A DNA stretch of 63,127 bases, filler included, from Chrysochromulina tobinii (lineage: Eukaryota), in the NCBI GenBank assembly GCA_001275005.1. It is 8 parts of 8 records of this genome, joined end to end, with 100 filler letters (N's around TTAATTAATTAA, not from the genome) between each part and the next. Parts side by side here need not be neighbours in the genome. Positions count along the whole stretch, not along the records: positions 2,833 to 19,804 come from JWZX01000918.1; 7 more parts are not named here. One strand, written 5' to 3'. The translations under genes and the position numbers were made by a program. Shown one piece after another: positions 1,948 through 52,275 of the stretch (positions are counted from its first letter, which is position 1; the number at the start of each line of letters is the position of its first letter). The notes under the pieces are model-generated. The model was not told the DNA's origin. It did not search any database and was given only the letters and a program-made list of their open reading frames with translations.

Positions 1948-2732
1948 GCAGCTGCAAAAGTGACACCGTCAAAACAGTCCAAAGTCACGCGGCGCGTGCG
2001 GGACGACTTTCGAGTGCGCAGGGTCGGTGGACTGACCCAATGTCAATTGGTGGTCCCCGAACAAGACAGGGCCACTCTCAGCCATCAAGGTCACCTTTCT
2101 GATGACTGGCCATAAGACGAGCGTCGGCGGCGTCTATGGCCGGCGGTCGGCGGCGGCAAAATCAGGCCGAGCACAGAGGGCTTGTGTGGGATTTCCTTTT
2201 TCACATCGCCTTCTTTTTAAGGTGAAAAACCACCACCCTGTCTGACGTAGAGCGGGTCGTGTTGGACCATCAACCCAAGCTCAAACTAGCGAAATTGAGT
2301 AGCCCGAGCGAGCGAGTACTGTCTCGAATCAGTACTTGTGTTGAACGAGGGGAGCGGAGCCGTCCTTTGAATATTGAAAGACGGTGATGGAGTGAGCGTG
2401 CAGCGTGGGGGGACCGCGACGAAACTGACTGACTGACTGGGGAAACTAGCTCACGGCATTAACAACTTTTCCCCTAACAAATCGAGTGACAAATGAGCAC
2501 CTTATATTATTATACTCCTCGGCAAGTTACCAAGTTTCATGTACGGGCGATTCCTTCGAACAGCGGTCCACCGGCTCAGCTAGACTCGCCGAGCTTATCC
2601 ATTGATGGCCGCCGCCCGACCACCGCCGCCTCGTCCGCGTCCGCCGCGCCCTCCAGCGCCGCGTCCTCCCGCGGCGGCACGTCCACCCGCGGCGCGTCCT
2701 CCCGCGCCACGAGTTCCGCCGCTTCGTGGCGC

Positions 2733-2832
2733 NNNNNNNNNNNNNNNNNNNNNNNNNNNNNNNNNNNNNNNNNNNNTTAATTAATTAANNNNNNNNNNNN
2801 NNNNNNNNNNNNNNNNNNNNNNNNNNNNNNNN
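2733..2832. other. Artificial contig linker (N44-TTAATTAATTAA-N44); identical linkers at 19805-19904, 35836-35935, 40506-40605, 53950-54049, 57003-57102 and 60097-60196
   Basis: Seven identical 100-nt spacers, each carrying stop codons in all six frames. Confidence 0.97.
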
Positions 2833-2894
2833 ATACGGCGCCTCGCGAGCACGCAGCCGAGCGTGAGCGCTACCTTGGCCAGCAGAGCCTGCCG

Positions 2895-4373
2895 GTGGAG
2901 CGCTACCACCAGCTGCTGCCGCCGCCGCCGCCGCCGCTGTCGCCCCGGACATCCCCGCTCCGACGCGAGGTGGCCCCGGCGCCGGCGCTGCCCCAAGCGA
3001 GCGTCGTCACGAGCGCACCGACGCCAACCGCCGCGCCGCAGCAGCTCCAGCAGCAGTTGACGGCGGCGCAGCAGCATCTTCTGCTCCAGCAGCTCCAGCA
3101 GCTGCAGCACCTCCAGCAGCTCCAGCAGCAGCAGCACCAGCAAATGCAGCAAATGCAGCAGATGCAGCACATGCAGCAGCACATGCACACGCACACGCCG
3201 CCGCCGCCGCCGCCGCCGGCCCAGGCACCTTCTTCGCAGCCGGCCCAGTCGCCTCCGCAGCCTGCCCAGTCGCAGCAGCAATGGCTGCAGCAGTTTCGTC
3301 AGCGCTCGGACCTCCAGGCGCAGCAACAGCGCCAGCAGCGTTCCGAGCGCCTCGCGCGCCAGCAGAGCCGCCGGCAGCCCTCAGCGGCCCCCGGCCGGCA
3401 GGCACCCCCTCCCCCCTACGCCCCCGCCGGGCAGCCCTCCACAGCGCCCCCCGGCCGGACGCAATCACAGCCGCAGCCACAGACGCAGCAGCCGCAGCCG
3501 CAGCCGCAGCCGCAGCCGCAGCAGCCACCGCAGCCGCCGCCGCTGCACGCCACGGCTCACATGCTGCCACTGCCACCGCGTCCGAAGCTCGCACAGCCGA
3601 GCACCCAGCGCAGCAAATCCGCACCTGACGAAACTGCACCTGACGAAACCTTCGTCAGCAAATCCGCACCCAAGCTGCCTTGCATGCAAGCGCTCACCAC
3701 AGCGCGACGCAGCAAATCCGCACCCAAGCGCACTGGCGCGCCTGCTGCGGCGGCTGCAACGGCTGCGGCTGGCACGCGTATGCCTCTCTCCTCTCTCTCC
3801 GTTTCGTTTGCCAACGACGCCGCCGCTGCGGCTCCGGGCGCTAGGGGGACTCCGCGCAAGGGTGTCGTGGCGACATCTCAAGGCTCGACATCTCAAGGCA
3901 CCAGCGCGCTCTGTGCGGCGGAGAAGGAGGCGGAGGCGAGGGCGGTGGGGAGGGCGGGAGCGACGAGGGCGATGGCGACGGCGGTGGCAGCCCCGGCGAT
4001 GGTGGCGACGGCGGCGACGGCGGTGGCAGTGGCGGCGACGGCGGTGGCGGCGACGGCGGCGGACGATGCGACTATGCGCGAGCGCCCGCCGCCTGCCTCA
4101 CCCTCCAGGCTGACCTATACCAACGCGCCCCTCTCCGACAGCACCCTCGGCACCATCCCCGAGGTGTCCACCGACATAGGCTCCATACTGGGTGCGAGTA
4201 CGCGGCGGGCTCCGGCGGCACCAGCGCCAACGACGGGCAGCGCGGGCGGTGCGGGCGGTTCGGGCGGTACGAGCGGGCAGGGAAATGACGCGAAGATCCA
4301 GCAGCTGATCTCGACGTGCTCGTATTGGGCCTCGGTGCTTCAGGCGGCGCAGGCGGGGCAGGTGGCCTCGTGA
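2895..4373 (+). CDS. Low-complexity Gln/Pro/Ala-rich hypothetical protein (probably 5'-partial)
   Basis: 492-aa ORF next to the gap, with polyQ/polyP tracts and repeated RSKSAP motifs; no recognisable domain. Confidence 0.5.
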   Translation: MERYHQLLPPPPPPLSPRTSPLRREVAPAPALPQASVVTSAPTPTAAPQQLQQQLTAAQQHLLLQQLQQLQHLQQLQQQQHQQMQQMQQMQHMQQHMHTHTPPPPPPPAQAPSSQPAQSPPQPAQSQQQWLQQFRQRSDLQAQQQRQQRSERLARQQSRRQPSAAPGRQAPPPPYAPAGQPSTAPPGRTQSQPQPQTQQPQPQPQPQPQQPPQPPPLHATAHMLPLPPRPKLAQPSTQRSKSAPDETAPDETFVSKSAPKLPCMQALTTARRSKSAPKRTGAPAAAAATAAAGTRMPLSSLSVSFANDAAAAAPGARGTPRKGVVATSQGSTSQGTSALCAAEKEAEARAVGRAGATRAMATAVAAPAMVATAATAVAVAATAVAATAADDATMRERPPPASPSRLTYTNAPLSDSTLGTIPEVSTDIGSILGASTRRAPAAPAPTTGSAGGAGGSGGTSGQGNDAKIQQLISTCSYWASVLQAAQAGQVAS

Positions 4374-5749
4374 TGACAGGTGGCCTCGTGACGGCGCTCG
4401 TGACGGCGCTCGAGGAGCGCTCGGCGGGGGGATCGGGGGCGGCGGAGTTGGCGCCTGAGCGCCGTCACGAGCGCCTGAGCGCCGTCACGAGCGCTTGAGC
4501 GCCGTCCTGGTGGACAGATTGGGAGCTCACGGGCGGGGGCTCGTCAAGCTTCGTCAAGCTGCGGTCGCTCGCAGCCCGAGGGACGCGAGATGTGTGGCGA
4601 GATGTGTGGTGCATTAGGGTGACTGGATGGCCAATGGGGGTGGACCTCATCTGGCGTCCTCCGCGATTCGATGCGGTGGGAGCTGTGTCGGTTGACCAAG
4701 GGTCCGGCGCGTGGGATAGCCGGGGCATGCTGCGGGGCACGTGGAGCGGCGTCACACGCCTCACGTCCCTAAACTGACGCTTCCGGATGTGCCTGGCCCT
4801 GGGGTGTGCATGACGCATGTCGGTGACGGTCCCCAGACCCCACATCGGTGACCAACACATGTGGATTTGCGGGATGGGGGCGCGGATGCAGTAGCTGCGA
4901 CCGTCGGGACTGTGCGGTTATGCGTGTACAGCTGGTCTCCTGCCGTGAAGCGTGACCGTGTCCGTGAGGGTGAGCGCGCGCGAGGACCGCGAAGGGAAAG
5001 CTAACTAGGCGAGGCGCGAGGAGGTCGACCCTGGCGGCCTAGCCGCGGCGCAACGCGACGTGGAGGGGCTTGTCGAGGTAGAGGGCGAAGGCGCCATGGG
5101 CGCGGACTTTGTTGCGCACGTGGTCGTGCCCGACCAGACTTCGACCAGACGGCCACATCGAGCAGCAGGCCGTCCTCGCGCGGCGCAAGCAGGCACAGCT
5201 CGATCTCGGATCTGCTCAGACACTGCACACTGGCGGTGGCGGTGCATCGAGCGAGCCGCCGGCCGAGGTGCAACAGGTTCACCTGAGTGAGGTGCGCCGG
5301 CTGCCGCCAAGCTGGTGACGAGGACAGACCGCTGTGTCATCTTTTATAACCATAATTTTGGTTCCTTTACGGCCCAAATACGCGAGGTCGAAGCAGGTCC
5401 CGGGACCGGAGCCGGTTCGGGAGATTGGAGCTAAGTATGGAGAGACACCGCGCATTCTCAATTCTGCAAACCATACTTAGTGCCGTTCGACGCGGCGGCT
5501 TTCGACTCGCGGCGGACCCCTCGGGACGTTTTACCTACGAACCGCCCACACGGTACACAGTCACTGAGCGTGAGCGAGCCGAGCAGCCGAGGCACGACGC
5601 CGAGCCCCCGAGCGCACGTGGCGCTGTGTCGCGGCTCGCGCACCGGGGCCCACTGAGCACGCGCTGGGGCCCGAAGGGGGACACACACACGGCAGGAGAC
5701 GCAGGACGGCGAGGGTCGTCCTAAGCAGTGCACGCCAAGGGCGTGCCGC

Positions 5750-7607: not shown

Positions 7608-9219
7608 ATGTCTAGCATCCTGAAGACATTTTCGGACGATGATGAGGATGCCGAGGTTTCTTCTCTGGCGCATCAAGCGGAGCAGCCAGTGCCAGCGCTA
7701 CCTCCGATGCTACCGGCACCGCAGCCGTGTCTAGCAACCCGTGAACCGAAAGATGGAGCCGAGGTGACAGACTTCATTGATCCGGAAATAGACACTGCGA
7801 GCTCCATCTACCACGGCGAATTAGCTTGGTGCGGACTTCCTCGGAAGGGGAGCAAGGCACGGCCACTGGCACACGGCAAGGGTATTCTCACGCTCAGCAA
7901 CGGCAGCAAGTACGAGGGCTCGTTTCAGCGGGGCCAGAGGCACGGCTACGGAAGGTGGGCCACGGACGATGGCGATGTCTACGAAGGCGATTGGCGCGAG
8001 GATGAGGTGACTGGGGCCGGCACGCTCAACTTCGGTGCTGGTGGGTCCTACAAAGGCGAGTGGGTGCACGGCTATCCGAACGGGCAAGGCACCAAGGAGG
8101 AATGCGACGGCACCAAGTACGTCGGCCAATTCCTCAACGATCGCCGCCACGGATGGGGCAAGCTTTACGACCCGCACGGTGCGCTCGTCCGCGAGGGTGA
8201 CTGGAAGGACGGCAGAGAGTACAACCCGCCGCCGAAGCCTGCCTCAAAGAAGAGGGAGTACAAATTTGTCGGCAGGGTACGCCCCAAAAGCCCGAACACC
8301 CTCCCGTGCACACATGTCCTTTCTCGGAGCTCATACGCCCGCTGAATGAACTCATGCGGCGCAGCTCGACGATATGGGCGATTACTATGTGCTGGTCGCC
8401 AAGGAGAATGAGACAATCGGTCAAATGGCCAAGGAGCTCGACCGCGGGTGCTCGCCCGAGGAGCTCATCGAATTCAACGCGAAGAACCTCCCATGTCTGA
8501 CGAGCAAGTCCAAGTTCAGGACCGGGTGCGAGGTCCGGTTGCCAACACTGAGCTGCGCCTACTACCTGGCCGACGCCAGGGTAGCCAAGGCAGAGACCGA
8601 GGCTGAGGCAAGGGTGGGCGACGCCCATCGTGAGATGGAGGTGGCCAAAGCAGAGGCAGCAAACGCCAAGGCCGAGGCGGCGAACGCCAAAGCAGAGGCG
8701 GCGAATGCCAAGGCCGAGGCGGCAGCAGCAAAGGCCGAGGCCAAGGCCCTCAAGGGGGCATCGGAGCAGGCGACCACCTCTTCGGAGGCGACCACCGCGG
8801 CCGTCGGCTCCAAGCACCAGCCACGACGGCCAGCGGAGGCCGAGGTGGAGGCTGACGTGGAGGATGAGGCGCCGAATGCGTCCGCCATGGTGGCCAGGCT
8901 GACGCAGCTGGACGACGCAGTGAGCAAGGAGCAGGCTAAGTTCAGCCAAGGCCGTGCGCAGATCGATGCTGTGCGCGATGGCCCGCTCGCCTCGGCGGTG
9001 GCACTGATGATCCCAGAGATGGAGAGCGCGCTCCAAAAGGTCCGAGAGGAGCTCGAGCGGCGCGACGGCATCAAACGCGCGCTGCTGCAAGCGCAGCAGG
9101 AGCACCACGCGGCCACTGAGGCAGAGCAGGTAGTGAAACGGCGGCGGCTGTCTGCCCAGACAGCGCTCATGGCGGCATGGCATGCGTCGAGTGCATGTAA
9201 AATATACAAAGACGACTAA
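7608..9219 (+). CDS. MORN-repeat / LysM-like / coiled-coil protein (2 exons: 7608-8276, 8365-9219)
   Basis: MORN repeats (YEGSFQRGQRHGYG, YKGEWVHGYPNGQG). A phase-0 GTACGC...GCAG intron at 8277-8364 joins ORF 8374..9219 in frame; that ORF begins with LysM-like VAKENETIGQMAKEL...EELIEFN...FRTGCEVRLP. Confidence 0.75.
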
Positions 9220-9508
9220 GTGTGTCTGCGGACCCGGTGAGTCTGTTATGACTTATGTTCTGTTATGTGAATGACATTATGAATGGTGAATGACATAATA
9301 GATAATATGCCGCGTATCGCGTATAAACTTACTGAAAAGACCGCGTTGAACGTGAGAAGACAAGTCCGAGAGTCCCAAGATGTCAGATCGTCGAGGATAC
9401 TTAGACTTAAGCTCTTAAGGCGCGCACGCACCCACCATGTTGACACCCACATCGCGCACACGAACCCACCACAGCTATGAGCTAAGAGCTTTCCAATGAC
9501 GATGTCCT

Positions 9509-11014
9509 TCATTCTCTCTGCGCGACGGCGAGGCATACGTCGAGATGCGAATTGATCGCACTCAGAGGGATGCTTGCGCCACACACGGGGCAGGTCGCCA
9601 GGGAGCAGGAGCGTTCCGCGGCGCGCTGCTGCGCTTCCACCCGTGGTGGCGACGGCGCGGCTGCAGCTCGATCTGATCCCGCCGTGGGAGTGACGAAACC
9701 CAAAGGGGGCGTGGGAGTGACGAAACCCAAAGGGGGCGTGGGAGTGACGAAACCCAAAGGGGGCGTGGGAGTGACGAAACCCAAAGGGGCCGCCTTGCGC
9801 ACGAACTGTAGAAGTGAGGGCTGGCCTGGCTCAGCGCGCTTGCGCTTTGCGGCCGCACCCGTCGCCGAACCCGATGCCCCGCTGTCGGCATACACGAGCA
9901 CGAGCACCAGACGGCTCACCCGAAAGGGCTGGGTGCCGACTGCAGCCTCGAAAGTGCGCGTGGCGAGCGCCGCGATGGCGTGCGCATCCTCATTCTTCGC
10001 GGGCGGCCAAGCCACCTGAGCCTGACGGACTTCCTTCGCGCTCGGGAAGAGTTTCCATTTGACCACGAGCTGCGCGGGCCGGCGCGGGCCGTACGTGGCC
10101 ACGTCATCCTCCGCGCGGGAGAGGAGCATGGGCGCAAGATGCACGAATCCATGATGCACGTGCTCCAGCCTGGTGGCGGGCTCGTGATCAGTCGGCCGTA
10201 CGGAGCACTCCACAGAGAGGCTACGCGGCAGCTGGAATCGACTTACGGTGCTGCCGTCGCACGCCGTGCTGAGCAACGAGCCGAGCGCCTCCGCCTCGGG
10301 CGCGCCGAGAGCGGCGGCAGCGCCGTGCGCCTCCTCCTCAAGCCATGCGCGCGCCTGAGCGAGCGTCGCCGCCTCGCCGAGGACGTGCTGCAAGCCGAGG
10401 CGCGTCGAAGGACGGAGCCCGTGCAGCCCGGCACCGCAGATCTTGTCGACTCTTGCCGCGTCGAGCAGTGCCCTCTCCGGTGCGGCGCCCACGCAGCAGT
10501 ACATGCCGTTGGGCTTGGCGTGCTTCGTCGCGAGCATAGAGAGCAGCTTTGTCCGAGCGAGGCCGACAGAGCAGCGCAGCCCAGTCGCTTGCAGCACCGC
10601 TGCTCGAAGCTCGTGAGCCCACGCCGTGGCAGCCTCCACTGAGGCCAACCGCTCCGGTAGCTGGACGAAAAAATCATCAAAGGAAGAACGCTCGACTTGA
10701 CGGCCCAGCCAGCTGGTGGCTGGCAGGCCGGGCGGGTCGAGTGAATGCATGACGCACGTGAGCACCGCCTGCCCAGCGCTTCGGTACCGCTGCATGGCAT
10801 TGACGCCATTGTCCCCGCGAACTAGGACCAGGTCAGGGCAAAGGCGCTTTCCCTCCGCCACCGAGATCCTGTTGTACAACCCAAATGCGCGCGCCTCGTA
10901 GTTGACTGCTGCGATCTCCATATTCTGTTGGACGCCAAGCGGACGGCCACGCACTGAAAGCCGCACCTCTTCGACTTGCGCGAAGAAGCAATCGACGTCC
11001 AGGTGGGCGATCAT
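9509..11014 (-). CDS. Y-family translesion DNA polymerase, Pol iota-like, with C-terminal UBZ4-type zinc finger
   Basis: Motifs MIAHLDVDCFFAQVE, PLGVQQ, VNYEAR, CPDLVLVRG, VERSSFDDFFV and CSVGLARTKLLSMLATKHAKPNG; C-terminal CPVCGASIPLSAINSHLDVCL. Confidence 0.9.
   Translation of the reverse strand: MIAHLDVDCFFAQVEEVRLSVRGRPLGVQQNMEIAAVNYEARAFGLYNRISVAEGKRLCPDLVLVRGDNGVNAMQRYRSAGQAVLTCVMHSLDPPGLPATSWLGRQVERSSFDDFFVQLPERLASVEAATAWAHELRAAVLQATGLRCSVGLARTKLLSMLATKHAKPNGMYCCVGAAPERALLDAARVDKICGAGLHGLRPSTRLGLQHVLGEAATLAQARAWLEEEAHGAAAALGAPEAEALGSLLSTACDGSTVSRFQLPRSLSVECSVRPTDHEPATRLEHVHHGFVHLAPMLLSRAEDDVATYGPRRPAQLVVKWKLFPSAKEVRQAQVAWPPAKNEDAHAIAALATRTFEAAVGTQPFRVSRLVLVLVYADSGASGSATGAAAKRKRAEPGQPSLLQFVRKAAPLGFVTPTPPLGFVTPTPPLGFVTPTPPLGFVTPTAGSDRAAAAPSPPRVEAQQRAAERSCSLATCPVCGASIPLSAINSHLDVCLAVAQRE
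9683..9790. repeat. 27-bp tandem repeat x4 encoding PPLGFVTPT within the polymerase linker
   Basis: GTGGGAGTGACGAAACCCAAAGGGGGC repeated. Confidence 0.9.
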
Positions 11015-14390: not shown

Positions 14391-16505
14391 CTACTTGCGA
14401 CGGAAGAGCGAGCCGAGGACGAAGGCAGTGCCCGCAACGGCGCCCCCAACGATTGCGGCGGCGAGCGTGGTCTTGGGCACGCCTGTCTGCGCTGACGCGT
14501 CCTCGAGCAGCTCCAGTGCACGGCCCACCCAGGGGCTTGGAGCGCCCAGGGGCTGGGCGGCGGTTGGAGCGCCCAGGGGCTGGGCGGCGGCTCGCGGAAG
14601 GATCAAGCGTCCTTCGTCTCTCTTGTCTCTTGTCTCTTCTCGTCTTGTCTCTTCTCGTCTCTTCTCTTCATTCACGGATGCAACAGCCATCTTGGCGGCA
14701 GGTAGATCTGGTACCGCCTCCGCTACCGCCTCCGCCTCCGCCACCGCCTCCGCCACCGCCTCCGCCTCCGCCTTGACATCAGCCTCAGTGTCGGCCTTCG
14801 CCTTCTCCGCGGCTGACTCGGCTCCAGTCACCGCCACCGCTTTATCCTTGGGCTCGGCCTCCGCTTTAGCCTTGGCCTCGGCCTCCGCTTTCGCCTTGGC
14901 CTCGGCCTCCGCCTTAGCCCGCGCCGGCATTGGAGGAGGCACGCTAGGCCTGCGTGGGGGCGGCAGGGCTGTCCCTGGGCTAGAGGCTCGGGCCGTTTGG
15001 GGCATTGGAGGAGGCACGCTTGGCCTGCGCTTTGGCGTCGCAGGCTCCTCTGGCCCCGATGTACCTGTGGCGCCGTGGTGAGCACTTGCATGCGTTGGCG
15101 TCGCAGCAGGCTCCTCTGGCCCCGTGGCTCCGGCGATCCTGCCCGTAGCGATGCTCTCCTTGGGTGGCTCGCCAGCGGCAGCTGCCGCCACGTTGACGGG
15201 GACGGCCGCCGCGCTCACGGCCGCCCCGCTGCCCACGACGGCGCTCACGGGCGCCCCACTGCCCACGACGGCGCTCACGGGTGCCCCGCTGCCCACGACG
15301 GCGCTCACGGGAGCCCCACTGCCCACGACGGCGCCACTGGGAGCCCCACTGCCCACGACGGCGCTCACGGGAGCCCCACTGCCCACGACGGCGCCACTGG
15401 GAGCCCCACCGCCTACGTGAGCTCCGCGCTGGGAGATCTGGACTCTGGGCGCAGTCCCTGGCATCTGCTCGACCAGGGCTGGGGCCGCGGTGGCGCCCTT
15501 AGCCGCCATGTCCGCTGCCTGCTCCCGCAGGCACAAGTCGCAGCCGCACACGAAGCCGTAGTTCTCACGCAGGGCCGCCCGCCGCTGCAGATAGGTCCAC
15601 TCGCGCGGCATCGCGAGGTACGCGTGCGTGAGCTTCTCGCCCGGCAGGAGGTCGCGCTTGGCAAAGGCGCGCACGAGGCCCTGCCCGGTACTCGGATCGT
15701 GGCCGCGCTTGGCGAGGATCTTCGCCTCGCTCACAAAGACGATCGTCGGGTCACACGCGTGGTTGGCCCGCGCCGCGAACGCGTACAAGGCGTTCGCGTG
15801 GAAGGGACTCGTCTTCTCAGCGCCATTGTCAAATAGGAACTGGTTGCAATGGAAGCGCAGCAGCACGGCGCGCACCTCCTCCACACGAGCGGCGCGCGCC
15901 ACGGCGGTGGCAAACGGCAAGCACGCTGGGAACGGTGCATTCGACCCCCCGACGAGGCGCTCAGCGCCCTCACGCACGTGGCCGATCTCTTCTGAGACGA
16001 TGCCCAGGTCGTTGAGCTGCTTGAGCGCCGTCGCCCACGGCCCATTGGCCACGTCTCCCAAGGCCCGCGCGCTCAGCTCCTCGTAGGCGCGCCAGCGCGT
16101 CCCATGGTGCTGTTCGACGGATTGCTCGTCCCGGCGCACCACGACGAAGGGCGGCTCCTCAAAGAGAGGGCAGCCGCGTGGCACATGCTCGCTCACGATG
16201 AGGCCGCGCCCGCACGTGCCCTGCGCGTCCTCGGCGGTCACTGCGGGGTGGCAGACCGCGCCCTCGAGGCCTCGCGGCAGGAGCACAAACTCCAGTGCGA
16301 GCGCTGACTCATGCACCAGCTCCGAAGTCTCGCCAAAGTCTCGCAAAGCAGCAGTCTCGCCAATGTCGACACGCCACAAGCCCGTTGTGGGATCGAAGGT
16401 GCGCAGCACGCAGAGCGCGCCGTCAAACTTCGCGCCCTTGGCGCGGATCCTGCAAACCGAGCCCTCGTGAATGCGGGTCGCGCTCGTGCGGCTCTTCAGC
16501 AGCAT
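14391..16505 (-). CDS. SMYD-like SET-domain methyltransferase with repetitive C-terminal region and terminal hydrophobic segment
   Basis: Motifs GRGLIVSEHVPRG, ANHACDPT, AKRDLLPGEKLTHAY and RRAALRENYGFVCGCDLC; 30-bp SAVVGSGAPV repeats at about 15200-15410. ATG at 16505 is the likely start. Confidence 0.8.
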   Translation of the reverse strand: MLLKSRTSATRIHEGSVCRIRAKGAKFDGALCVLRTFDPTTGLWRVDIGETAALRDFGETSELVHESALALEFVLLPRGLEGAVCHPAVTAEDAQGTCGRGLIVSEHVPRGCPLFEEPPFVVVRRDEQSVEQHHGTRWRAYEELSARALGDVANGPWATALKQLNDLGIVSEEIGHVREGAERLVGGSNAPFPACLPFATAVARAARVEEVRAVLLRFHCNQFLFDNGAEKTSPFHANALYAFAARANHACDPTIVFVSEAKILAKRGHDPSTGQGLVRAFAKRDLLPGEKLTHAYLAMPREWTYLQRRAALRENYGFVCGCDLCLREQAADMAAKGATAAPALVEQMPGTAPRVQISQRGAHVGGGAPSGAVVGSGAPVSAVVGSGAPSGAVVGSGAPVSAVVGSGAPVSAVVGSGAPVSAVVGSGAAVSAAAVPVNVAAAAAGEPPKESIATGRIAGATGPEEPAATPTHASAHHGATGTSGPEEPATPKRRPSVPPPMPQTARASSPGTALPPPRRPSVPPPMPARAKAEAEAKAKAEAEAKAKAEAEPKDKAVAVTGAESAAEKAKADTEADVKAEAEAVAEAVAEAEAVAEAVPDLPAAKMAVASVNEEKRREETRREETRDKRDEGRLILPRAAAQPLGAPTAAQPLGAPSPWVGRALELLEDASAQTGVPKTTLAAAIVGGAVAGTAFVLGSLFRRK

Positions 16506-16891: not shown

Positions 16892-19804
16892 ATGGCATGG
16901 CACCGTCGTTTCGCCAAGTCTCCTTGCTCTCGGCCACATCGGCCTCGAGAGAAGCAGGGCGTGCGCGGTGCCCACACTCTCCTTGCATGGTGCACCATCC
17001 TGCCCTGCACCGAGACCAGCGACGTTCCCGGGTTGAACCGAGGTCTGCAGCTCGCGGTGCCCAGCCACCGCCGTGAGCTGCAGACCGCGGTGAGCGCCAG
17101 CGCTGACCTGACCAGCGCACTCGCCAACACCGCCGTCAGCCGCATCGTCCTTGCCTCCGGCACCTACAACCTCATCGCCGAGCTCAGCATCACCAGGAGC
17201 GTCATCCTTGAGGCGGCGGCGGGAGCCACGGTCACCCTGAACGCACAAGCGAGCTCCTCGAGTCAGCGCCGAGTGCTGAACATCAACCCGGGTTCGTCGG
17301 GCGTCGTGCAACTGAACGGACTTCGCATCACGGGAGGCCACATCAACAACTCAGTGCGCGCTCAAGTTCCCATCGCTCCGATGGGAGACTCACGTTTTGC
17401 GTTTTGTTCGCAGGGAGGAGGTGTCTACGTCTCTTCCGGCACGGTCACGATAACGTCTTCCTCGATCTACGGGAATATAGCTTCCAATGTGCGCGCTCAT
17501 CTTCATAAGTTCCCAATGCCCCCACGGGAGACTCATGTTTGGCTCGTTGTTTGCAGGGCGGTGGTGTCTTTGTCACATCCAGCACAGTCTCAATCGTCAA
17601 CTCCCAAGTTTATTACAATCAAGCTACTAGTTTTGTCGTGCGTGCTCATGCTCAAAAGTTCCCATCGCCCCGATGGGAACAATTCTGACGCGCTTGATTT
17701 GAGTCTCGCTCGCTCTACTGCGGCCAACTCTTCGATCAACTACAGTCTGTACGCGCCGCAGAGACTTGAATGTTTCCCATCGCCCCGATGGGAAAACTGC
17801 TGACATGCTTGCCCCAACTCACGCTTGCACAACTGCAAACGATGCTTTGGTCGACAACAGGGGGTGCGTGCCACAGAGACCTTGAAAACTTCCCATCGCC
17901 CCAATGGGAATCCCTTGCTGACATGTTCAACTTGACACTCGCCTTTCAACTGGGTGGGATCCATCTTTTGTTCTACCAGGGATATGTACGTACCTGCAAA
18001 ACCCCATCGTGCTCGTGTTCAAAAGTTCCCATGGAAACTAACGTTTTGCTCGTTGTTTGTATAGGGCGGCGGTGTCTACGTCTCTTCCGGCACAGTCTCG
18101 ATAACGTCTTCCTCGATCACCGGCAACACAGCTTCTGGTTCATTTTTTGTGCGTGCTTAAGTGCAAAACTTCCCATTGCCCCAATGGGAAAGTTGCTGAC
18201 GTGCTTGCCCCGACTCACGCTTGCTCAACTGCGGCCGACGCTTCCGTCAACTACAGGGGGTGCGTACTGCAGAGACCTTGAAAGGTTCCCATTGGGCCGA
18301 TGGGAAAATGCTCACGCGCTTGCTTTGATTCTCGCTTGCACAACTGTGGCCGACGCTTCGGTCAACTTCAGGGGGTGCGTGCTGCATTGACGTTCAAACG
18401 TTCCCATGGCCCCGAAGGGAATATGGCTGACGTGCCCAAATCGACTCTCATCTTTCAATTCGGATCGATATTTGGTCCTATCAGGGAGATGTATGTGCCA
18501 GCCACGCCTGCAAACTTCCCATCGCCTCGATGGGAGACTTACGTTTGGATCCTTGTTTGCAGGGAGGCGGTATTCGTGTCGATTCTGGCACGGTCACGAT
18601 CACCGCGTCCTCTATCACCGGGAACACAGCAGTGGGCAGAGTGCGTGCTCATCTTCGAAAGTTTCCCATCGCCCCCACGGGAGACTCATGTTTGGTTCGT
18701 TGTTTGCAGGGCGCTGGTGTCTTTGTCACGTCCGGCACAGTCTCAATCGTCAACTCCCAAGTTTATTCCAATCAAGTTGATAATATCTTCGTGCGTGCTC
18801 ATGCTCAAAAGTTCCCATCGCCCTGATAGGAAAGTTGCTGACACGCTTTGCCTCGACTCTCGCTTGCACTACTGCGGCCGACTCTTCGATCAACTACAGT
18901 CTGTACGTGCCGCAGAGACCTGAAGTTTTCCCATCGCCTCGATAGGAAAATGGCTGACGCGCTTGCTTCGATTCGCTCGCACAACTGCGGCGGACGCTCC
19001 GGTCAACTATAGTGTGCCTCAAACCCATGTGTACGTGCCGCAGAGACCTGAAATTTTCCCATCGCCCTCAAGGGGTGCTAATGTTTTTGCTCGTGGTTTG
19101 CAGGGACCCAATGTCTATGTCTCCTCGGCGGGCACCGTCTGCACCTGGGCAATGGCCCTCACCAACGAGGTCGCAGGCTCAGTCTCGACTTGCACCGCAC
19201 CACCGCCCCCGGCGCTGCCACCGCCACCGCCATCGCCACCCCCTTTGCCACCGCCACCCTCGCCGCCGCCCTCACCTCCATCACCCTCGCCACCGCCGCC
19301 TTCGCCACCGCCTCCCTCACCGCCACCACCTTTGCCACCACCCTCGCCATCACCCTCGCCACCGCCGCCCCCTACACCATCACCATTACCATCACCATCA
19401 CCTCCTCCTTTGCCGCCTTCGCCGTCGTGTCCTCCGCGATCTCCGCCTCCGCCGTCGCCGCGGCCACCGTTGTACTGGTGTGACGACACGTGCACGATCA
19501 CAGTGCAAGGCGAGATCGCGCCGGAGACAATCGTCCTGCACAACAACGATGTGTGCAACGATGGAGGTGAGGGTTCCGAGTTTTCAGGTTGCCGCATCGG
19601 CACCGACTGTACTGACTGCGGTCAACGATTAGTCATGCCACCTTTGCCGCCGCCACCGTTCCCTCCGCCACCGCCTCCGTCACGCCCTTCCTGCCCTTCT
19701 TTACCGCTACCGCCCAGCCCGCCGCCGCCCTCGCCCTCCCCTCCACCGTCCTCGCCCTCGCCGCCGCCGCCCTCGCCATCACCACCACCGCCATCGCCCT
19801 CGCC
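16892..19804 (+). CDS. Multi-exon Pmp-like right-handed beta-helix surface protein with microexons, Pro-rich stalk and Cys-rich module (3'-partial)
   Basis: Exons: 16892-17353, 17414-17488, 17557-17637, 17746-17748, 17861-17863, 17980-17985, 18065-18148, 18257-18259, 18372-18374, 18485-18490, 18563-18640, 18710-18790, 18900-18902, 19013-19030, 19104-gap. All 14 introns are GT...AG and phase 0. The product is GGGVYVSSGTVTITSSSIYGN-type repeats followed by PPPSP tracts and CNDGGEGSEFSGCRIGTDCTDCG. Confidence 0.8.
17354..19103 (+). repeat. Family of 14 homologous introns sharing a TTCCCATCGCCCCGATGGGAA-type hairpin
   Basis: The hairpin or a degenerate version recurs in each intron (e.g. 17368-17386, about 17659, 17774, 17890, 18170, 18516); donors are GTGCGC/GTGCGT/GTACGC/GTACGT/GTATGT. 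Confidence 0.85.
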
Positions 19805-20561
19805 NNNNNNNNNNNNNNNNNNNNNNNNNNNNNNNNNNNNNNNNNNNNTTAATTAATTAANNNNNNNNNNNNNNNNNNNNNNNNNNNNNNNNNNNNNNNN
19901 NNNNTATTTACACTGTCTTCGGGTGTACTGCCATCGGGTGTACACTGTCATCGGGAGATCGGGTGTACGACGAACTTCGAATACAAGTAAACTAAAGTGG
20001 TAACGTAACGCTCCGGTGCACATAGTGTGTTTGTCAGCTTTTGGCTCTCCACAACTTAGAATTCTTTGGCAACCGCGCCCACAGGCGGCCGGGCCCTCAC
20101 ACTCGAAGTTTTCGACTCAAGGTCAAGCGGCTTCGACGTGGAATGTGTTAATGATAGCGCCAGACGTGCACCATCCTCATGCACGCTCGGGCGCTGCCTT
20201 CAGCCGCGCGCCGCTACCGTTCATCGCAGGGGCTACCGGTAGGTGTGAAACCGCAACGCAGCAAACTACCGGGACTTCGCGTCGCGCGCGCGCCGCGCGA
20301 GGCGGCGGCGGCGAGCGGCGGCGACGGGGTGGGGCTGGGGGGCGGGAGCGTGAGTTTGTGTGTTTGCCTGCCTGCGTTTACGTGTTGACCGGTTTGTCCC
20401 AAGCGCTGTGGTGGGAAGGGAGAGGGCGGGTATGACTTGACTTGACTTGACGTTTCATGCTCGAACCGGTACAAGCTCGCATTCTCCCATCCTCGGCGGC
20501 TAAACCCGGCGAGCAACTCGGTGTCCTTCCGGCCGCCGCCAGAAGCGCATTCAGGAGCAAG

Positions 20562-20774: not shown

Positions 20775-21647
20775 AGTGGCGCAACCGTCCTGCACGACCG
20801 TGCAGACATTCCTGCAGACCGTCCCGCACGGCCGTTCTGCACGACCGTCCTCGCCGTGGTTCCGTCGAAATTATCGAGCACGCACATCACACACGAGGAA
20901 ACGAGCAGTAGCACAGCGCCGAAAGGTGGTGACTGCTGGCTGAGGGATTATGTGCCAAGCTGCCACGGCTTTCCATGTACAAGCGTCGGTTATTTACACT
21001 GTCTTCGGGTGTACTGCCATCGGGTGTACACTGTCATCGGGAGATCGGGTGTACGACGAACTTCGAATACAAGTAAACTAAAGTGGTAACGTAACGCTCC
21101 GGTGCACATAGTGTGTTTGTCAGCTTTTGGCTCTCCACAACTTAGAATTCTTTGGCAACCGCGCCCACAGGCGGCCGGGCCCTCACACTCGAAGTTTTCG
21201 ACTCAAGGTCAAGCGGCTTCGACGTGGAATGTGTTAATGATAGCGCCAGACGTGCACCATCCTCATGCACGCTCGGGCGCTGCCTTCAGCCGCGCGCCGC
21301 TACCGTTCATCGCAGGGGCTACCGGTAGGTGTGAAACCGCAACGCAGCAAACTACCGGGACTTCGCGTCGCGCGCGCGCCGCGCGAGGCGGCGGCGGCGA
21401 GCGGCGGCGACGGGGTGGGGCTGGGGGGCGGGAGCGTGAGTTTGTGTGTTTGCCTGCCTGCGTTTACGTGTTGACCGGTTTGTCCCAAGCGCTGTGGTGG
21501 GAAGGGAGAGGGCGGGTATGACTTGACTTGACTTGACGTTTCATGCTCGAACCGGTACAAGCTCGCATTCTCCCATCCTCGGCGGCTAAACCCGGCGAGC
21601 AACTCGGTGTCCTTCCGGCCGCCGCCAGAAGCGCATTCAGGAGCAAG

Positions 21648-49896: not shown

Positions 49897-50175
49897 TCAC
49901 AACCAAATAGCAAATTGAGTGGGGCAGGCGGGGAGTCGCCTGCATCGCCCGCGTCGTCCGCCTCCGGCATGCAGCGGCGCCGCCTCGGCGGGCATCGATC
50001 GGGCGCCACGCGACCTCAAAAGAAATGAGAGATTTCTCCCTTTAACCATGCGAAATCTCTCAGAATTTGACTTGACTTGTCATGAGGACTTGACTTGACT
50101 TGGCTTGACTTGACTTGTGATGAGGGTGTCGAGGGCGTCCTCGGTCGGCTCCTCCGGCGAGCGAGCGAGCGCAAC

Positions 50176-52275
50176 ATGCGAACCGTCTTGATCGCCGCGA
50201 CCGTGACTTTCGCGGCTGCGGACGTTTTCGTATCTCCGACCGGCAATGACGCCAATGAGGGCACTTCGCCCAGCAGCGCGGTCGCCACTCTGCAACGCGC
50301 AGCGGCGGCCGCTCGGGCCACTCGCTCCACGGTGGTCCACGTTGCGAGCGGCACGTACAAAGGCCCACTGACGCTGAGCAAGGAAGACTCTGGCGTGCAG
50401 TGGCTGGCCGCAGGTCCCGACGTGCGTGTGAGCGGCGGCGTCGAGCTCAACGCATGGACTCCATCCGCCATGGGCCCCAACATTGTCATGGCTGACGTGA
50501 CTGGCCTCGAGGGCAGGCAGGATCGTCATCTCTACGTGGGCGGTGTGCGTGCGCGCCGGACGCGCTACCCGGAGACGGCAGCCCGTTCGCTCTTTGCGGG
50601 CGCTCGGATGACTGATGACGGCTTTGTGTTGTCGCATGCCTCGATGGTCGCCGCCCCTCGTGGGCCGTGTGAAGGGCCATGTGAACTGCCATGTGCCGCC
50701 GACCACGGCTCATCAATGCCGTGCTGTGGCCAGGGTGGAGACCCCGTCGACCCACAGTACCAGTGCCCGGCATCGGCTCCATTCTGCACTGACTACGTTG
50801 AGAACGTGCAGTGGGGCACGTGCCAGCAGACGCCGCCGCCAGCGCCCACGCCACCGACGCCGTGGCCGCGCGGTGGCCTAGGGGTCGAGTTCGTCTACCC
50901 GCAGTCCACGTCGCCTTGGACGGAGCCGAGGTGCGCGGTGCTTCGGCGCAACGCGACGCACATTGAGATGATGCAACCGTGCTGGCGCAACCTGGTGCAC
51001 AAGGCGTGCGACCAAGGGGCCAAGGGCCCACCAGACCTCGCGGGCGCCGTGACGGGTGCGAGGCCGGTGGGCTACAAGGGGTATGTGGTCGCCGGCTTGG
51101 GAGCCCCTCTGGAAGGCAGCGGCTACATTGAGAACGTGGGGCCCTCGAGCACCATGGAGCCCGGCGACTGGGCCCTCGACGAGATCGTCGAGCCTGGCAA
51201 GCGCAGGTGGAGGGCTTATTACGCGCTGCGGGCTGGAGAGACGGTGACGAGCGTGCGGGCGATGATGCCAACGCTCTCCGTGCTGCTGAATGTGAGCGGC
51301 GGCGCGCGCGACCTCGGCTTCGTCGGGTTCGCCTTCGAGTACGCCACGTGGCTGCGCCCAGGCCAGGCCGACGGTTACGTCGAGCAGCAAACGGGCTGCG
51401 GCACCGTGGGCACCAATTACAGCTCGAATTCGGATTGCAACAAGGACTACTTCTGGTCCGTCAAGTCGCCGGGGAATGTGCTCGTGCAAGACGCGACCAA
51501 CGTGTCCTTCGTTGGGTGCGAGTTCTCCAAGCTGGGTGGCTTCGGGCTCGACCTCTCGCGCACCGTCGGCTGCGTCATCGACGGCTGCTACTTCCACGAC
51601 ATCTCGGGCTCCGCAATCCAGATCGGCCAGTTTCAGGATGCGCTGGCTGCGCCGCTCGATCGCGACAACGTGGTGCGGAACACGATCATCGTGCGCGCCG
51701 CGGCGGAGTACTCCGGTGCCGCGGGCCTCAACGTGGGCTACACGGTCGGCACGCTGCTCGAGCACAACGACGTGGGGAACTTGACCTATGGCGCCATCTC
51801 GGTCGGTTGGGGTTGGTGGCGCCACGTGTGCGCGACGTGCACCAACGCGGCGAACAACACCATCCGGTTCAACCGCGCGCATGGGTACAAACAAGCGCTC
51901 AACGACGGCGGCGGCATTTACATGCTGGGGCCCCAGAATGGCAGCCTGATCCACGGGAACTGGGTCTACGATCAGGGCACCGCAAGCTCAGGCGCGCTCT
52001 ATCCCGACGAAGGCTCCGCCTACTCGACGTGGTCCGGCAACGTCGTCACGAACATCCATGGCTCCAAGTGGCTGCATCTGTGGACGAGCTCGATCCACGA
52101 CGTCGTGGTCCGCGACAACTTTGCGGATACGGACTATTACCAGAACTCGGGCACCAACTGCCCGATGATCAACAATACTGTGTTTCAGCCAGGCTCGCCT
52201 CCAAGGGATGCGCAAGAGATCATGGACTTTGCGGGGGTGCCAAAGGGGCACAGATGGGCCTCGGTGCTGAGATGA
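50176..52275 (+). CDS. Secreted right-handed beta-helix protein, GH141-like, with Cys-rich insert
   Basis: Signal-like MRTVLIAATVTFAAA, VFVSPTGNDANEGT, LYVGGVRARRTRYP, YGAISVGWGW, LNDGGGIYMLG and LYPDEGS. Confidence 0.8.
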   Translation: MRTVLIAATVTFAAADVFVSPTGNDANEGTSPSSAVATLQRAAAAARATRSTVVHVASGTYKGPLTLSKEDSGVQWLAAGPDVRVSGGVELNAWTPSAMGPNIVMADVTGLEGRQDRHLYVGGVRARRTRYPETAARSLFAGARMTDDGFVLSHASMVAAPRGPCEGPCELPCAADHGSSMPCCGQGGDPVDPQYQCPASAPFCTDYVENVQWGTCQQTPPPAPTPPTPWPRGGLGVEFVYPQSTSPWTEPRCAVLRRNATHIEMMQPCWRNLVHKACDQGAKGPPDLAGAVTGARPVGYKGYVVAGLGAPLEGSGYIENVGPSSTMEPGDWALDEIVEPGKRRWRAYYALRAGETVTSVRAMMPTLSVLLNVSGGARDLGFVGFAFEYATWLRPGQADGYVEQQTGCGTVGTNYSSNSDCNKDYFWSVKSPGNVLVQDATNVSFVGCEFSKLGGFGLDLSRTVGCVIDGCYFHDISGSAIQIGQFQDALAAPLDRDNVVRNTIIVRAAAEYSGAAGLNVGYTVGTLLEHNDVGNLTYGAISVGWGWWRHVCATCTNAANNTIRFNRAHGYKQALNDGGGIYMLGPQNGSLIHGNWVYDQGTASSGALYPDEGSAYSTWSGNVVTNIHGSKWLHLWTSSIHDVVVRDNFADTDYYQNSGTNCPMINNTVFQPGSPPRDAQEIMDFAGVPKGHRWASVLR

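Follow-up and report, generated by a model that had tools for sequence, protein, structure and literature searches.

The window, i.e. the whole 63,127-nucleotide stretch of DNA that was analysed from the freshwater alga Chrysochromulina tobinii, carries on the plus strand at 16892-19805 a gene with 14 introns, all of them GT-AG, in phase 0 and 60-116 nt in length. The spliced frame over 16892-19805 is 536 codons long and stop-free, and all 13 internal exons are multiples of 3. Eight of these 13 are symmetric microexons of 3-18 nt, each bounded by AG and GT, which together carry just 45 of the 1608 coding bases. The features are as follows.

16892..17353, +, exon 1: common N-terminus and beta-helix N-cap, with an RRELQ motif and possibly a weak signal peptide
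17354..17413, +, intron 1: 60 nt, short class, core at 17367
17414..17488, +, repeat exon of 75 nt (spliced-frame parse)
17557..17637, +, repeat exon of 81 nt (spliced-frame parse)
17746..17748, +, single-codon exon TCT (Ser); sequence, outside RNA contig cover
17861..17863, +, single-codon exon GGG (Gly); sequence, outside RNA contig cover
17980..17985, +, two-codon exon GGATAT (Gly-Tyr); sequence, outside RNA contig cover
18065..18148, +, repeat exon of 84 nt (parse; spliced in contigs of RNA runs X3 and X9)
18257..18259, +, single-codon exon GGG (Gly); in RNA, runs X3 and X9
18372..18374, +, single-codon exon GGG (Gly); in RNA, runs X3 and X9
18485..18490, +, two-codon exon GGAGAT (Gly-Asp); in RNA, runs X3 and X9
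18563..18640, +, repeat exon of 78 nt (parse and RNA contigs)
18710..18790, +, repeat exon of 81 nt (parse and RNA; the joint 18640-18710 is GT..AG)
18900..18902, +, single-codon exon TCT (Ser); in RNA, run X3
19013..19030, +, 18-nt exon; in RNA, run X3
19104..19805, +, terminal exon as far as visible: C-cap, Pro/Ser-rich stalk and Cys-rich module, ending at the N gap at 19806
17354..19103, +, array of 14 homologous modular introns (parse and core motif)
17367, 17510, 17659, 17774, 17890, 18170, 18286, 18401, 18516, 18663, 18812, 18928 and 19056, +, starts of the intron cores (motif)
17510..17812, +, block with a duplicate at 18663-18966 (86-89% identity; families D6 and D7)

This layout agrees with a preliminary description of the DNA in the position of all eight microexons between AG and GT, in the GT...AG phase-0 introns (14 of 14), in the symmetry of the internal exons (13 of 13) and in the five repeat exons of 75-84 nt (75, 81, 84, 78 and 81 nt). 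The description also had every repeat begin with GGG, which is the case for the first four; the fifth begins G-A-G. The duplicated block consists of a repeat exon, the Ser microexon and the flanking introns. The in-frame Met of exon 1 and the ensuing N-terminus are found also at loci L002, L003, L004 and L027, with differing upstream DNA. As the gene is truncated by the assembly gap at 19806, its membrane anchor and tail are not visible in the window copy.

The pattern YAG-(1-20 nt)-GT has 14 matches in the 1.75 kb region, eight of them multiples of 3, and 132 matches in the other 61 kb of the window, where they are evenly distributed across frames; this loose pattern is thus by itself no proof of microexons. 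An Rfam search of 17300-19200 gave no match. A second ORF with a beta-helix, at 50086-52272 in the window, was considered as a relative and found to be unrelated (probability 0.2%).

Transcripts

In RNA contigs from runs X3 and X9, 11 letters separate 18149 from 18563. Together with the first G, which is aligned, they make up exactly the microexons at 18257, 18372 and 18485 (12 nt in total: 3, 3 and 6 nt). In the X3 contig, 18640 is moreover joined to 18710 and, via TCT, 18790 to 19013. The RNA shows that consecutive exons of 3, 3 and 6 nt are strung together by the spliceosome. Five of the eight microexons were seen spliced into RNA contigs and are real exons; contig cover is absent over 17500-18060, which holds the first cluster (17746, 17861 and 17980). 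Unspliced contigs exist too, and one in run X2 spans intron 1. Of 20 runs, 15 with a small share were set aside. Transcripts that never include microexons (18148 joined directly to 18563, 18790 to 19104) had been named as the result that would speak against the preliminary description; the contigs include every microexon there.

The preliminary description had further proposed that any subset of exons may be skipped, so that one gene would give a pool of isoforms as in the micro-exon genes (MEGs) of schistosomes. Symmetry of every exon, which keeps the frame, is in favour of such skipping, as is its occurrence in MEGs and in brown-algal ROCO genes according to the available text of two reports (PMC4350168, PMC11378527). 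The cassette with a lost acceptor at locus L002 could also be skipped without harm. All microexons were, however, retained in the two contigs across 18148-18563 and in the one across 18790-19013, i.e. no skipping was seen in three of three cluster crossings, in two contigs of depth 2.3 and 3.5. Minor isoforms could escape at this depth, since contigs drop rare variants, and the RNA runs possibly belong to a single campaign. Against skipping is also locus L027, which has a 2-nt exon compensated by one additional base in the following exon, so that the frame holds only when the 2-nt exon is included. Very different loops are, in addition, already present in the DNA of the family. Skipping in many combinations has therefore no support so far, and we regard it as unlikely to be the source of diversity.

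Gene family

The window gene is a member of a large Chrysochromulina family. All 95 internal exons curated in 12 intron-bearing loci have lengths divisible by 3, and the 43 single-codon exons among them use 18 codons; when 13 related loci were parsed without regard to frame, the same held for 73 of 73 exons. The public Chrysochromulina gene models P0009 and P0035 read straight through the introns. Microexon positions have entropies of 1.7, 2.0 and 1.3 bits, and none of 32 intron positions flanking them exceeds 1.2. Repeat positions 5, 7, 24 and 25 are hypervariable, and their changes are almost exclusively amino-acid-altering. Allele pairs contain too few differences for dN/dS, and one pair has a frameshift.

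No relative and no core motif was found in viral contigs, and the arm and core pattern described below had no match in prokaryotic genomes. A profile search of 1.84 billion representatives gave very long unnamed repeat proteins. The closest named relatives outside Chrysochromulina are bacterial, which implies that the introns were gained at some time.

Introns

The introns share one plan, in which a palindromic core of 21 nt stands between two arms: the 5' arm goes with the upstream exon and the 3' arm with the downstream one. The core is a perfect 9-bp inverted repeat around the asymmetric 3-nt spacer CCC. It is often degenerate, being exact over its 21 nt in 13 of 109 cases, and in intron 6 (17986-18064) its centre is lost. 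The core hairpin formed in each of the seven introns folded; z-scores of whole introns were weak (below -2 in one of seven).

Linkage of arms to exons was assessed with 80 introns for which both neighbours were available, taking the nearest neighbour from another locus; the largest class holds 35 of the 80. The 5' arm predicted the class of the upstream exon in 67 cases and of the downstream exon in 32, whereas the 3' arm predicted the downstream class in 77 and the upstream class in 23. All nine junction types were observed. Within the repeat class, arm similarity was correlated across the 75-nt exon (rho 0.29); across the 21-nt core it was uncorrelated in the two larger classes (rho -0.06 to 0.05). 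Linkage across the exon was absent within the 3-nt class (rho -0.05), and the class-level linkage could alternatively reflect the splicing needs of tiny exons. The core halves showed no covariation (44 paired versus 43.3 after shuffling), as is expected if halves are freely exchanged.

One may ask whether the introns are an Introner-type transposon repeatedly inserted in loop codons, the microexons being a tolerated by-product with no role in diversification. The introns are all homologous and carry an inverted repeat, and Introners have been reported in a Chrysochromulina MAG (PMC9860276, available text). Intronless paralogs exist and could be ancestral, and the bacterial relatives mentioned above imply intron gain. 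The core motif (up to 4 mismatches) is nevertheless confined to family genes in the DNA searched, which comprised some 270 kb of loci and, in addition, the window of 63 kb, and the introns are in phase 0 and confined to the loop, with one compensated exception (L027). No target-site duplication was seen at the splice sites, and the inverted repeat sits centrally in the intron and not at its ends. The arms are unlinked within the intron and linked across the exon, the reverse of what an inserted element would give, and the codons of the microexons are more variable than the introns around them. An Introner origin without a diversifying role thus appears very unlikely.

Recombination of cassettes

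Near-identical cassettes occur in new orders, re-joined at the core. Among shared segments of at least 96% identity, 10 of 20 ends fall in the core, which makes up 17% of the array length (binomial p 0.0007, or p 0.024 when the target is widened to 27%); these ends are not independent, and alignments tend to extend through the conserved core. At locus L018 the same cassettes are found in differing orders with a switch at the core centre, and one junction there joins the core centre to a short microhomology within a 3' arm. P0128 matches window exon 1 and the first 5' arm (120 of 126 aa) and has another arm class directly after the core. A deletion scan, which was noisy, gave 20 deletions, nine with an end in the core. 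As half of the segment ends lie outside the core and one junction uses microhomology, the core is a hotspot and no strict site.

The arrays of L008 and L009 do not differ, and in the P0003 cluster seven of ten members share the reading of the first four introns. Shuffling is consequently slow, as arrays are stable between samples.

It is conceivable that a recombinase or transposase recognises the core and moves cassettes in an integron-like manner, perhaps inside one cell lineage or when induced. The perfect 9-bp inverted repeat with its asymmetric spacer, the switches at its centre and the inverted half-sites that bound each cassette would fit such a directed system, and a hAT-like and a retrotransposon-like ORF lie within the window. 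The frequent degeneracy of the cores, the other breakpoints and microhomology joins and the identity of arrays between samples speak against it. Close to the loci, the 79 flanking ORFs include neither a recombinase nor a reverse transcriptase. We consider a directed system distinctly unlikely.

Given the modular introns and the near-identical cassettes re-joined at the core, the diversity most likely arises by shuffling of cassettes in DNA together with fast codon change, and not chiefly by exon skipping.

Paralogs without introns

Twenty of 43 loci are intronless, and genomic contigs of 10-55 kb show that many genes with contiguous repeats lack introns. The proteins with contiguous repeats (alignment A1) had been considered as products of transcripts; since many of their genes are intronless in genomic DNA, the alignment is no mRNA set. 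In the loops of intronless genes Gly is encoded by GGR at a ratio of 42:15, versus 19:27 at other variable positions (p 0.001), and all six Tyr-Gly dipeptides are identical to known 6-nt exons. These loops use codons of the microexon type. An apparent preference for T-ending codons was discarded: with the framework as control it reached p 1e-9, with the other variable positions p 0.19 only. Where a spliced array and an intronless gene match exactly, the match is short (at best 14 nt over three junctions, L002 versus L025) and gives no more than a hint.

A tree was built from 31 cap sequences, without L041, L043 and near-duplicate loci; copies that are intron-rich, mixed or intronless are interspersed in it. 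The intron-rich state needs four changes, one of them forced by strong branches; the tree gives no direction of intron loss or gain. Modular palindrome-centred introns, re-joining of cassettes in DNA and intronless paralogs were all absent from the preliminary description.

Encoded protein

The model of paralog P0069 is a right-handed beta-helix with high pLDDT at about residues 35-310, and its best structural matches are beta-helices (9cdu/9cdv, 6kfn and 1ru4). Paralogs match PF13229 and some PF02415 in Pfam, with coils of about 25 residues; exon 1 and the last exon of the window, unspliced, matched no Pfam family. The spliced window product of 536 aa has five G[GA]G(V/I) motifs and [IV]xxN. 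The P0069 model, the type of prediction that the preliminary description had called for, supports the view that microexons form the variable loop of a right-handed beta-helix. The description had called the protein Pmp-like, which is apt for the predicted fold and not for the motifs: with no GGA(I/L/V) and no FxxN in the window product, chlamydial Pmp identity was rejected.

A clear signal peptide was not found in the window copy (maximum hydropathy 1.26). Complete paralogs have a membrane helix followed by a kinase, ADP-ribosyltransferase (ART), TIR-like or short tail, and none matched an autotransporter barrel family. The tail is a kinase in L004 (PF00069, E 4e-38) and an ART in L027 (PF01129, E 9e-11). 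The L002 tail was modelled with a pLDDT of 93 as a TIR/deoxyribosyltransferase-like fold. Its best VIA match is the SpbK TIR, with Z 6.5 (below Z 8), rmsd 3.8 and 109 aligned, and many TIR and deoxyribosyltransferase rows follow at Z 4-6. Foldseek gave nothing under E 0.001 for this tail, the Atlas and a sequence search of the PDB gave no name, and Pfam HET matched weakly in 2 of 52 homologs (E 0.04). By its membrane helices and tails the family thus looks like surface receptors, in line with the surface receptor or adhesin first suggested.

Discussion

The microexons are real exons, spliced in series, and supply loop residues of a predicted beta-helix; we consider it probable that the gene is part of a receptor repertoire diversified mainly in the DNA, by recombination between intron cores. 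The unit of exchange would be a cassette running from core centre to core centre, i.e. right half-core, 3' arm, exon, 5' arm and left half-core. As all introns are in phase 0 and have a common core, any cassette may follow any other. Crossing-over or conversion at the core, probably assisted by breaks at the hairpin, would then add, remove or swap one residue, two residues or one coil without a frameshift, and point mutation thereafter would rapidly alter the exposed codons. The gene probably encodes a single-pass surface receptor made up of beta-helix, stalk, membrane helix and, as seen in paralogs, a kinase, ART or TIR-like tail, for which recognition of viruses, bacteria or non-self cells is proposed. 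The intronless paralogs are likely copies stripped of their introns via cDNA, in which one loop combination would be frozen.

A bolder version of this proposal, which we find rather unlikely, is an integron-like diversifier in which a dedicated enzyme cuts and re-joins codon and coil cassettes at their palindromic half-sites, loops change by single residues, cDNA fixes successful combinations as intronless copies and beta-helix sensors signal via TIR-like, kinase or ADP-ribosyltransferase tails, giving an innate (possibly adaptive-like) immune repertoire against giant viruses and bacteria.

DNA-level assembly from repeat or gene cassettes is known from the VLRs of jawless fish and from bacterial integrons, whose cassettes are bounded by palindromic sites. 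The present family would resemble both in its probable re-joining of cassettes in DNA, and integrons also in the palindromic bounds. It differs in that its cassettes, as small as one codon, stay parted by spliceosomal introns.

The closest known system is that of the exon-shuffled ROCO receptors of brown algae, here at single-residue resolution. According to the available text, brown-algal ROCO (LRR) and NB-ARC-TPR proteins are exon-shuffled candidate immune receptors (PMC3341825, which also mentions VLRs; PMC11378527). As in the present family, every repeat there has a symmetric exon of its own, exons are shuffled within and between genes, introns contain exons that were inactivated, residues at exposed positions are hypervariable and a role in algal immunity is proposed; one symmetric exon per repeat with traceable intra- and intergenic shuffling is what was found here. 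Unlike them, this haptophyte family has beta-helix coils instead of LRR or TPR, loop-building cassettes of one or two codons, short homologous introns with switches at a palindromic core, a single-pass membrane architecture with swapped tails, and intronless paralogs. Pfam searches of 18 family proteins, and of those of the 79 locus ORFs that belong to the family, found neither LRR with ROC-COR nor NB-ARC with TPR.

Schistosoma MEGs, in the available text of PMC4350168, have tiny symmetric exons in series, long introns and probably secreted or surface products, with diversity ascribed to alternative splicing. The present genes share the exons and the probable location, but have homologous introns of 60-118 nt, only full inclusion (at low depth) and microexons that form just the loops of a folded domain. 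MEG identity was rejected, the protein being unrelated: its named close homologs are Chrysochromulina proteins and its fold is a beta-helix. Chlamydial Pmp (PF02415) and PF13229 proteins also have beta-helix coils whose side loops, in turn T3, are variable (PMC11166332); the paralogs are set apart by their eukaryotic single-pass tails, and no autotransporter barrel was seen in any of them. Introners, too, are homologous spliceosomal introns, short and carrying an inverted repeat (PMC9860276), but here the introns belong to one gene family and one phase in the loci and window searched, with arms linked across exons.

Microexons can, on this evidence, act as units of family-wide shuffling with single-residue resolution. 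No report of microexons in Chrysochromulina or haptophytes was found in the open-access literature. Gene finders overlook or garble such genes, as in P0009 and P0035, and a candidate immune receptor class of bloom-forming haptophytes is thereby hidden. The palindromic core offers a testable handle on the targeting of exon shuffling, a matter left open for the ROCO genes of brown algae. With paralogs in intron-rich, mixed and intronless form side by side, the family provides a natural system for following intron loss.

Structure of the window gene

The gene at 16892-19805 (+) consists of 15 exons and 14 introns, and its repeat exons are:

17414-17488, +, repeat exon
17557-17637, +, repeat exon
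18065-18148, +, repeat exon
18563-18640, +, repeat exon
18710-18790, +, repeat exon

Every intron has GT-AG ends, lies in phase 0 and measures 60-116 nt, and the spliced frame of 536 codons contains no stop before it is cut at 19806 by an assembly gap (19806-19905, runs of N around the linker TTAATTAATTAA). The eight microexons of the preliminary description were all recovered at the same positions, each between AG and GT. The 14 introns are mutually homologous, with a central inverted repeat common to them, and further copies of this intron family were not found elsewhere in the 63-kb window.

Beyond the gap, 19905-20204 exactly repeats 20991-21290, likely an assembly overlap. The divergent neighbour is a SET-domain gene (PF00856, 14391-16775, -) with a 30-nt tandem repeat at 15181-15450. 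A hAT transposase-like ORF (PF05699, 36410-39199, +) and a retrotransposon Pol fragment (PF22936, 39482-40438, -) share one low-GC stretch, and a second, unrelated beta-helix protein (PF13229, 50086-52272, +) is without the intron family.

Splicing of the microexons

A search of RNA runs found a small share of the gene's words in 20 of them, and five of these were compared. Contigs were compared at 88 % for runs X1-X4 and at 97 % for X3, X2, X1 and X9, with five contigs in total at 97 %. In contigs of 214 nt (X3) and 153 nt (X9), only 11 letters separate 18149 from 18563; together with the aligned first G they correspond exactly, and in sequence, to the microexons at 18257, 18372 and 18485. 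The contig of X3 continues across 18640-18710 (GT..AG) and then from 18790 via TCT into 19013-19031; the aligned parts of both contigs hold no other letters. Splicing of microexons into transcripts was thus borne out at the 18149-18563 and 18790-19013 joints, with five of the eight seen in spliced RNA and the first cluster lying outside the RNA contig cover. On exon 18065-18148 the X3 contig has only 20 nt and that of X9 85 nt, and the two runs, of the same year and sample type, may be from one campaign. Unspliced contigs also occurred (X1, 18268-18445 and 19061-19190; X2, 17235-17413); DNA or pre-mRNA could account for them.

It had further been proposed that skipping of exon subsets diversifies the protein. 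Cluster crossings in the RNA contigs include all microexons in three of three cases, at spanning-contig depths of only 2.3 and 3.5 and with rare forms dropped from contigs, and this speaks against such a role. Diversity made by splicing is improbable, and it and DNA shuffling are not mutually exclusive.

The gene family

Of 2962 candidates compared with the exon-1 domain, 203 were longer proteins that matched it at an E value of 0.001 or lower. Among the 120 matches listed, those that bear a name are from Chrysochromulina parva and C. tobinii, and the next named relatives in a profile search are bacterial repeat proteins. A metagenome scan gave at least 43 loci (L001-L043), L001 being 99.9 % identical to the window. 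Of the 43 listed, 11 have an intron array, 3 have one diverged intron of this family and 4 are mixed; another 20 lack introns in the portion covered, and 5 are uninformative. These counts are biased because short-read assemblies break in the arrays. Several intronless loci sit next to unrelated neighbours on contigs 10-55 kb long, which marks them as genomic.

The beta-helix module is also fused in frame behind housekeeping fragments (acetyl-CoA carboxylase, tubulin, peptidase M16) in L018 (2239-6507), L022 (120-1598), L030 (760-2073) and the homologous proteins P0110-P0112, and in L011, L015 and L016 it stands beside Laminin-G and ALK/LTK glycine-rich domains. These are possibly decoy or capture fusions, and they are one source of misleading public names.

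In a tree of the cap the intron states are interspersed, and L016 and L023 combine spliced and intron-free junctions within single genes. A few introns with degenerate cores stand beside intron-free junctions in L016 (6200-8095), L023 (265-751) and L021; in L016 the whole unit is also duplicated in tandem, almost exactly. In loops of intronless genes GGR glycine codons are favoured (42:15 versus 19:27), and all six Tyr-Gly pairs are hexamers of known 6-nt exons. Both features favour the view that intronless copies lost their introns through cDNA. A bias towards T-ending codons was dropped as a signal of intron loss, being not specific.

Modular introns and in-frame cassettes

All introns but one are built of a 5' arm, a 21-nt core (a 9-bp inverted repeat around CCC) and a 3' arm. 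Both neighbouring exons are known for 80 introns. In this set the 5' arm follows the class of the upstream exon in 67 and of the downstream exon in 32, and the 3' arm that of the downstream exon in 77 and of the upstream exon in 23; all nine junction types occur. Within classes, with pairs that are not independent, arm similarity extends across the 75-nt exon (rho 0.29), is absent across the core (rho -0.06, 0.05, -0.14, -0.37) and is absent across the exon in the 3-nt class (rho -0.05). No covariation was found between the two core halves. That microexons are a by-product of Introners, a transposon-like intron family, is highly improbable; two Introner features described in PMC9860276 were not found in this family.

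Parsing blind to frame, with strong acceptors, yielded 73 internal exons, every one a multiple of 3 in length. The hand-curated set (12 loci; 110 introns, 109 with GT and one with GC donors) leaves out one junction in L027 and three whose splice sites are weak or dead, of which L002 has two and L004 one; its 95 internal exons are all multiples of 3 and contain no stop, 43 being single-codon (18 codon kinds) and 10 two-codon. One L002 cassette (an exon with its adjoining arms and half-cores) no longer has an acceptor AG, and its skipping would leave the frame intact. In L027 a 2-nt exon is compensated by the exon that follows, which starts with one additional base. This is the sole departure from phase 0 seen, and it hints that microexon inclusion is required there. 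Microexons of 15 nt (L018, 6475-6489 and 8129-8143) and 51 nt (L027, 2451-2501) were also seen. Those of L018 appear to have arisen by an acceptor shift upstream into the long 3' arm, a route for recruiting new loop sequence from the intron.

Cassettes have been re-joined. Identical repeat and microexon cassettes recur within L018 in new orders, switching at the core centre. Protein P0128 agrees with the window gene in exon 1 and the first 5' arm and continues, just past the core, with a long-class arm. Ten of the 20 ends of ten shared segments (at least 70 nt, at least 96 % identity) fall in the core, which makes up 17 % of the length. The core is not a strict site: the remaining ends are in arms and exons, a short microhomology serves at one junction, and of 109 cores only 13 are exact. 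Fast or somatic shuffling is disfavoured by the identical arrays of L008 and L009 and by the P0003 protein cluster, where 7 of 10 members have the first four introns in common.

Loop variation and protein architecture

The three microexon positions have entropies of 1.7, 2.0 and 1.3 bits, and flanking intron positions at most 1.2. Across 26 distinct 75-nt exons, positions 5, 7, 24 and 25 are hypervariable, and nearly all changes there alter the amino acid; changes at framework positions are mostly silent. The near-identical loci L023 and L024 differ in 17 codons, and at 15 of these the amino acid changes; every difference lies within the repeats, and the cap has none.

Paralog P0069 was modelled with confidence as a right-handed beta-helix, with Rhombotarget A, lyases and epimerases as its best matches. 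Of the proposed likeness to chlamydial Pmp proteins the fold thus holds, for this paralog model, and the motifs do not, as the window product has no Pmp motifs. The variable side loops of Pmp proteins belong to turn T3 (PMC11166332); residues from microexons, together with positions 5 and 7, probably make up a single exposed face.

In intron-rich paralogs the last exon leads into a membrane helix and then a cytoplasmic tail. Three loci with the same ectodomain and nearly the same membrane helix carry different tails (positions are those of each locus):

2406-5063, L004, protein kinase
2993-4276, L027, ADP-ribosyltransferase domain
8858-9829, L002, TIR/HET-like domain

A TIR/deoxyribosyltransferase-like fold predicted for the L002 tail (Z 6.5) is a lead only. 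The window copy, whose end is missing at the gap, shares its start with these three loci, and no clear signal peptide was found in it.

Origin and significance of the array

Exchange of DNA at the palindromic core, together with selection, probably builds a repertoire of single-pass receptors. The exchange of cassettes at the shared palindrome would proceed over evolutionary time by ordinary recombination or break repair, and selection on exposed codons would add to this. A directed recombinase system is distinctly improbable, as the 79 flanking ORFs include no recombinase; nor was a reverse transcriptase found among them.

Schistosome micro-exon genes are alike in exon size, but unlike in protein, intron and shown mechanism, as described in PMC4350168. 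In the open-access literature we found no account of haptophyte microexons. The array of the window gene is real, RNA-supported and unusual; it is a variant of exon-shuffled receptor repertoires, marked by single-codon cassettes and a probable palindromic recombination hotspot.
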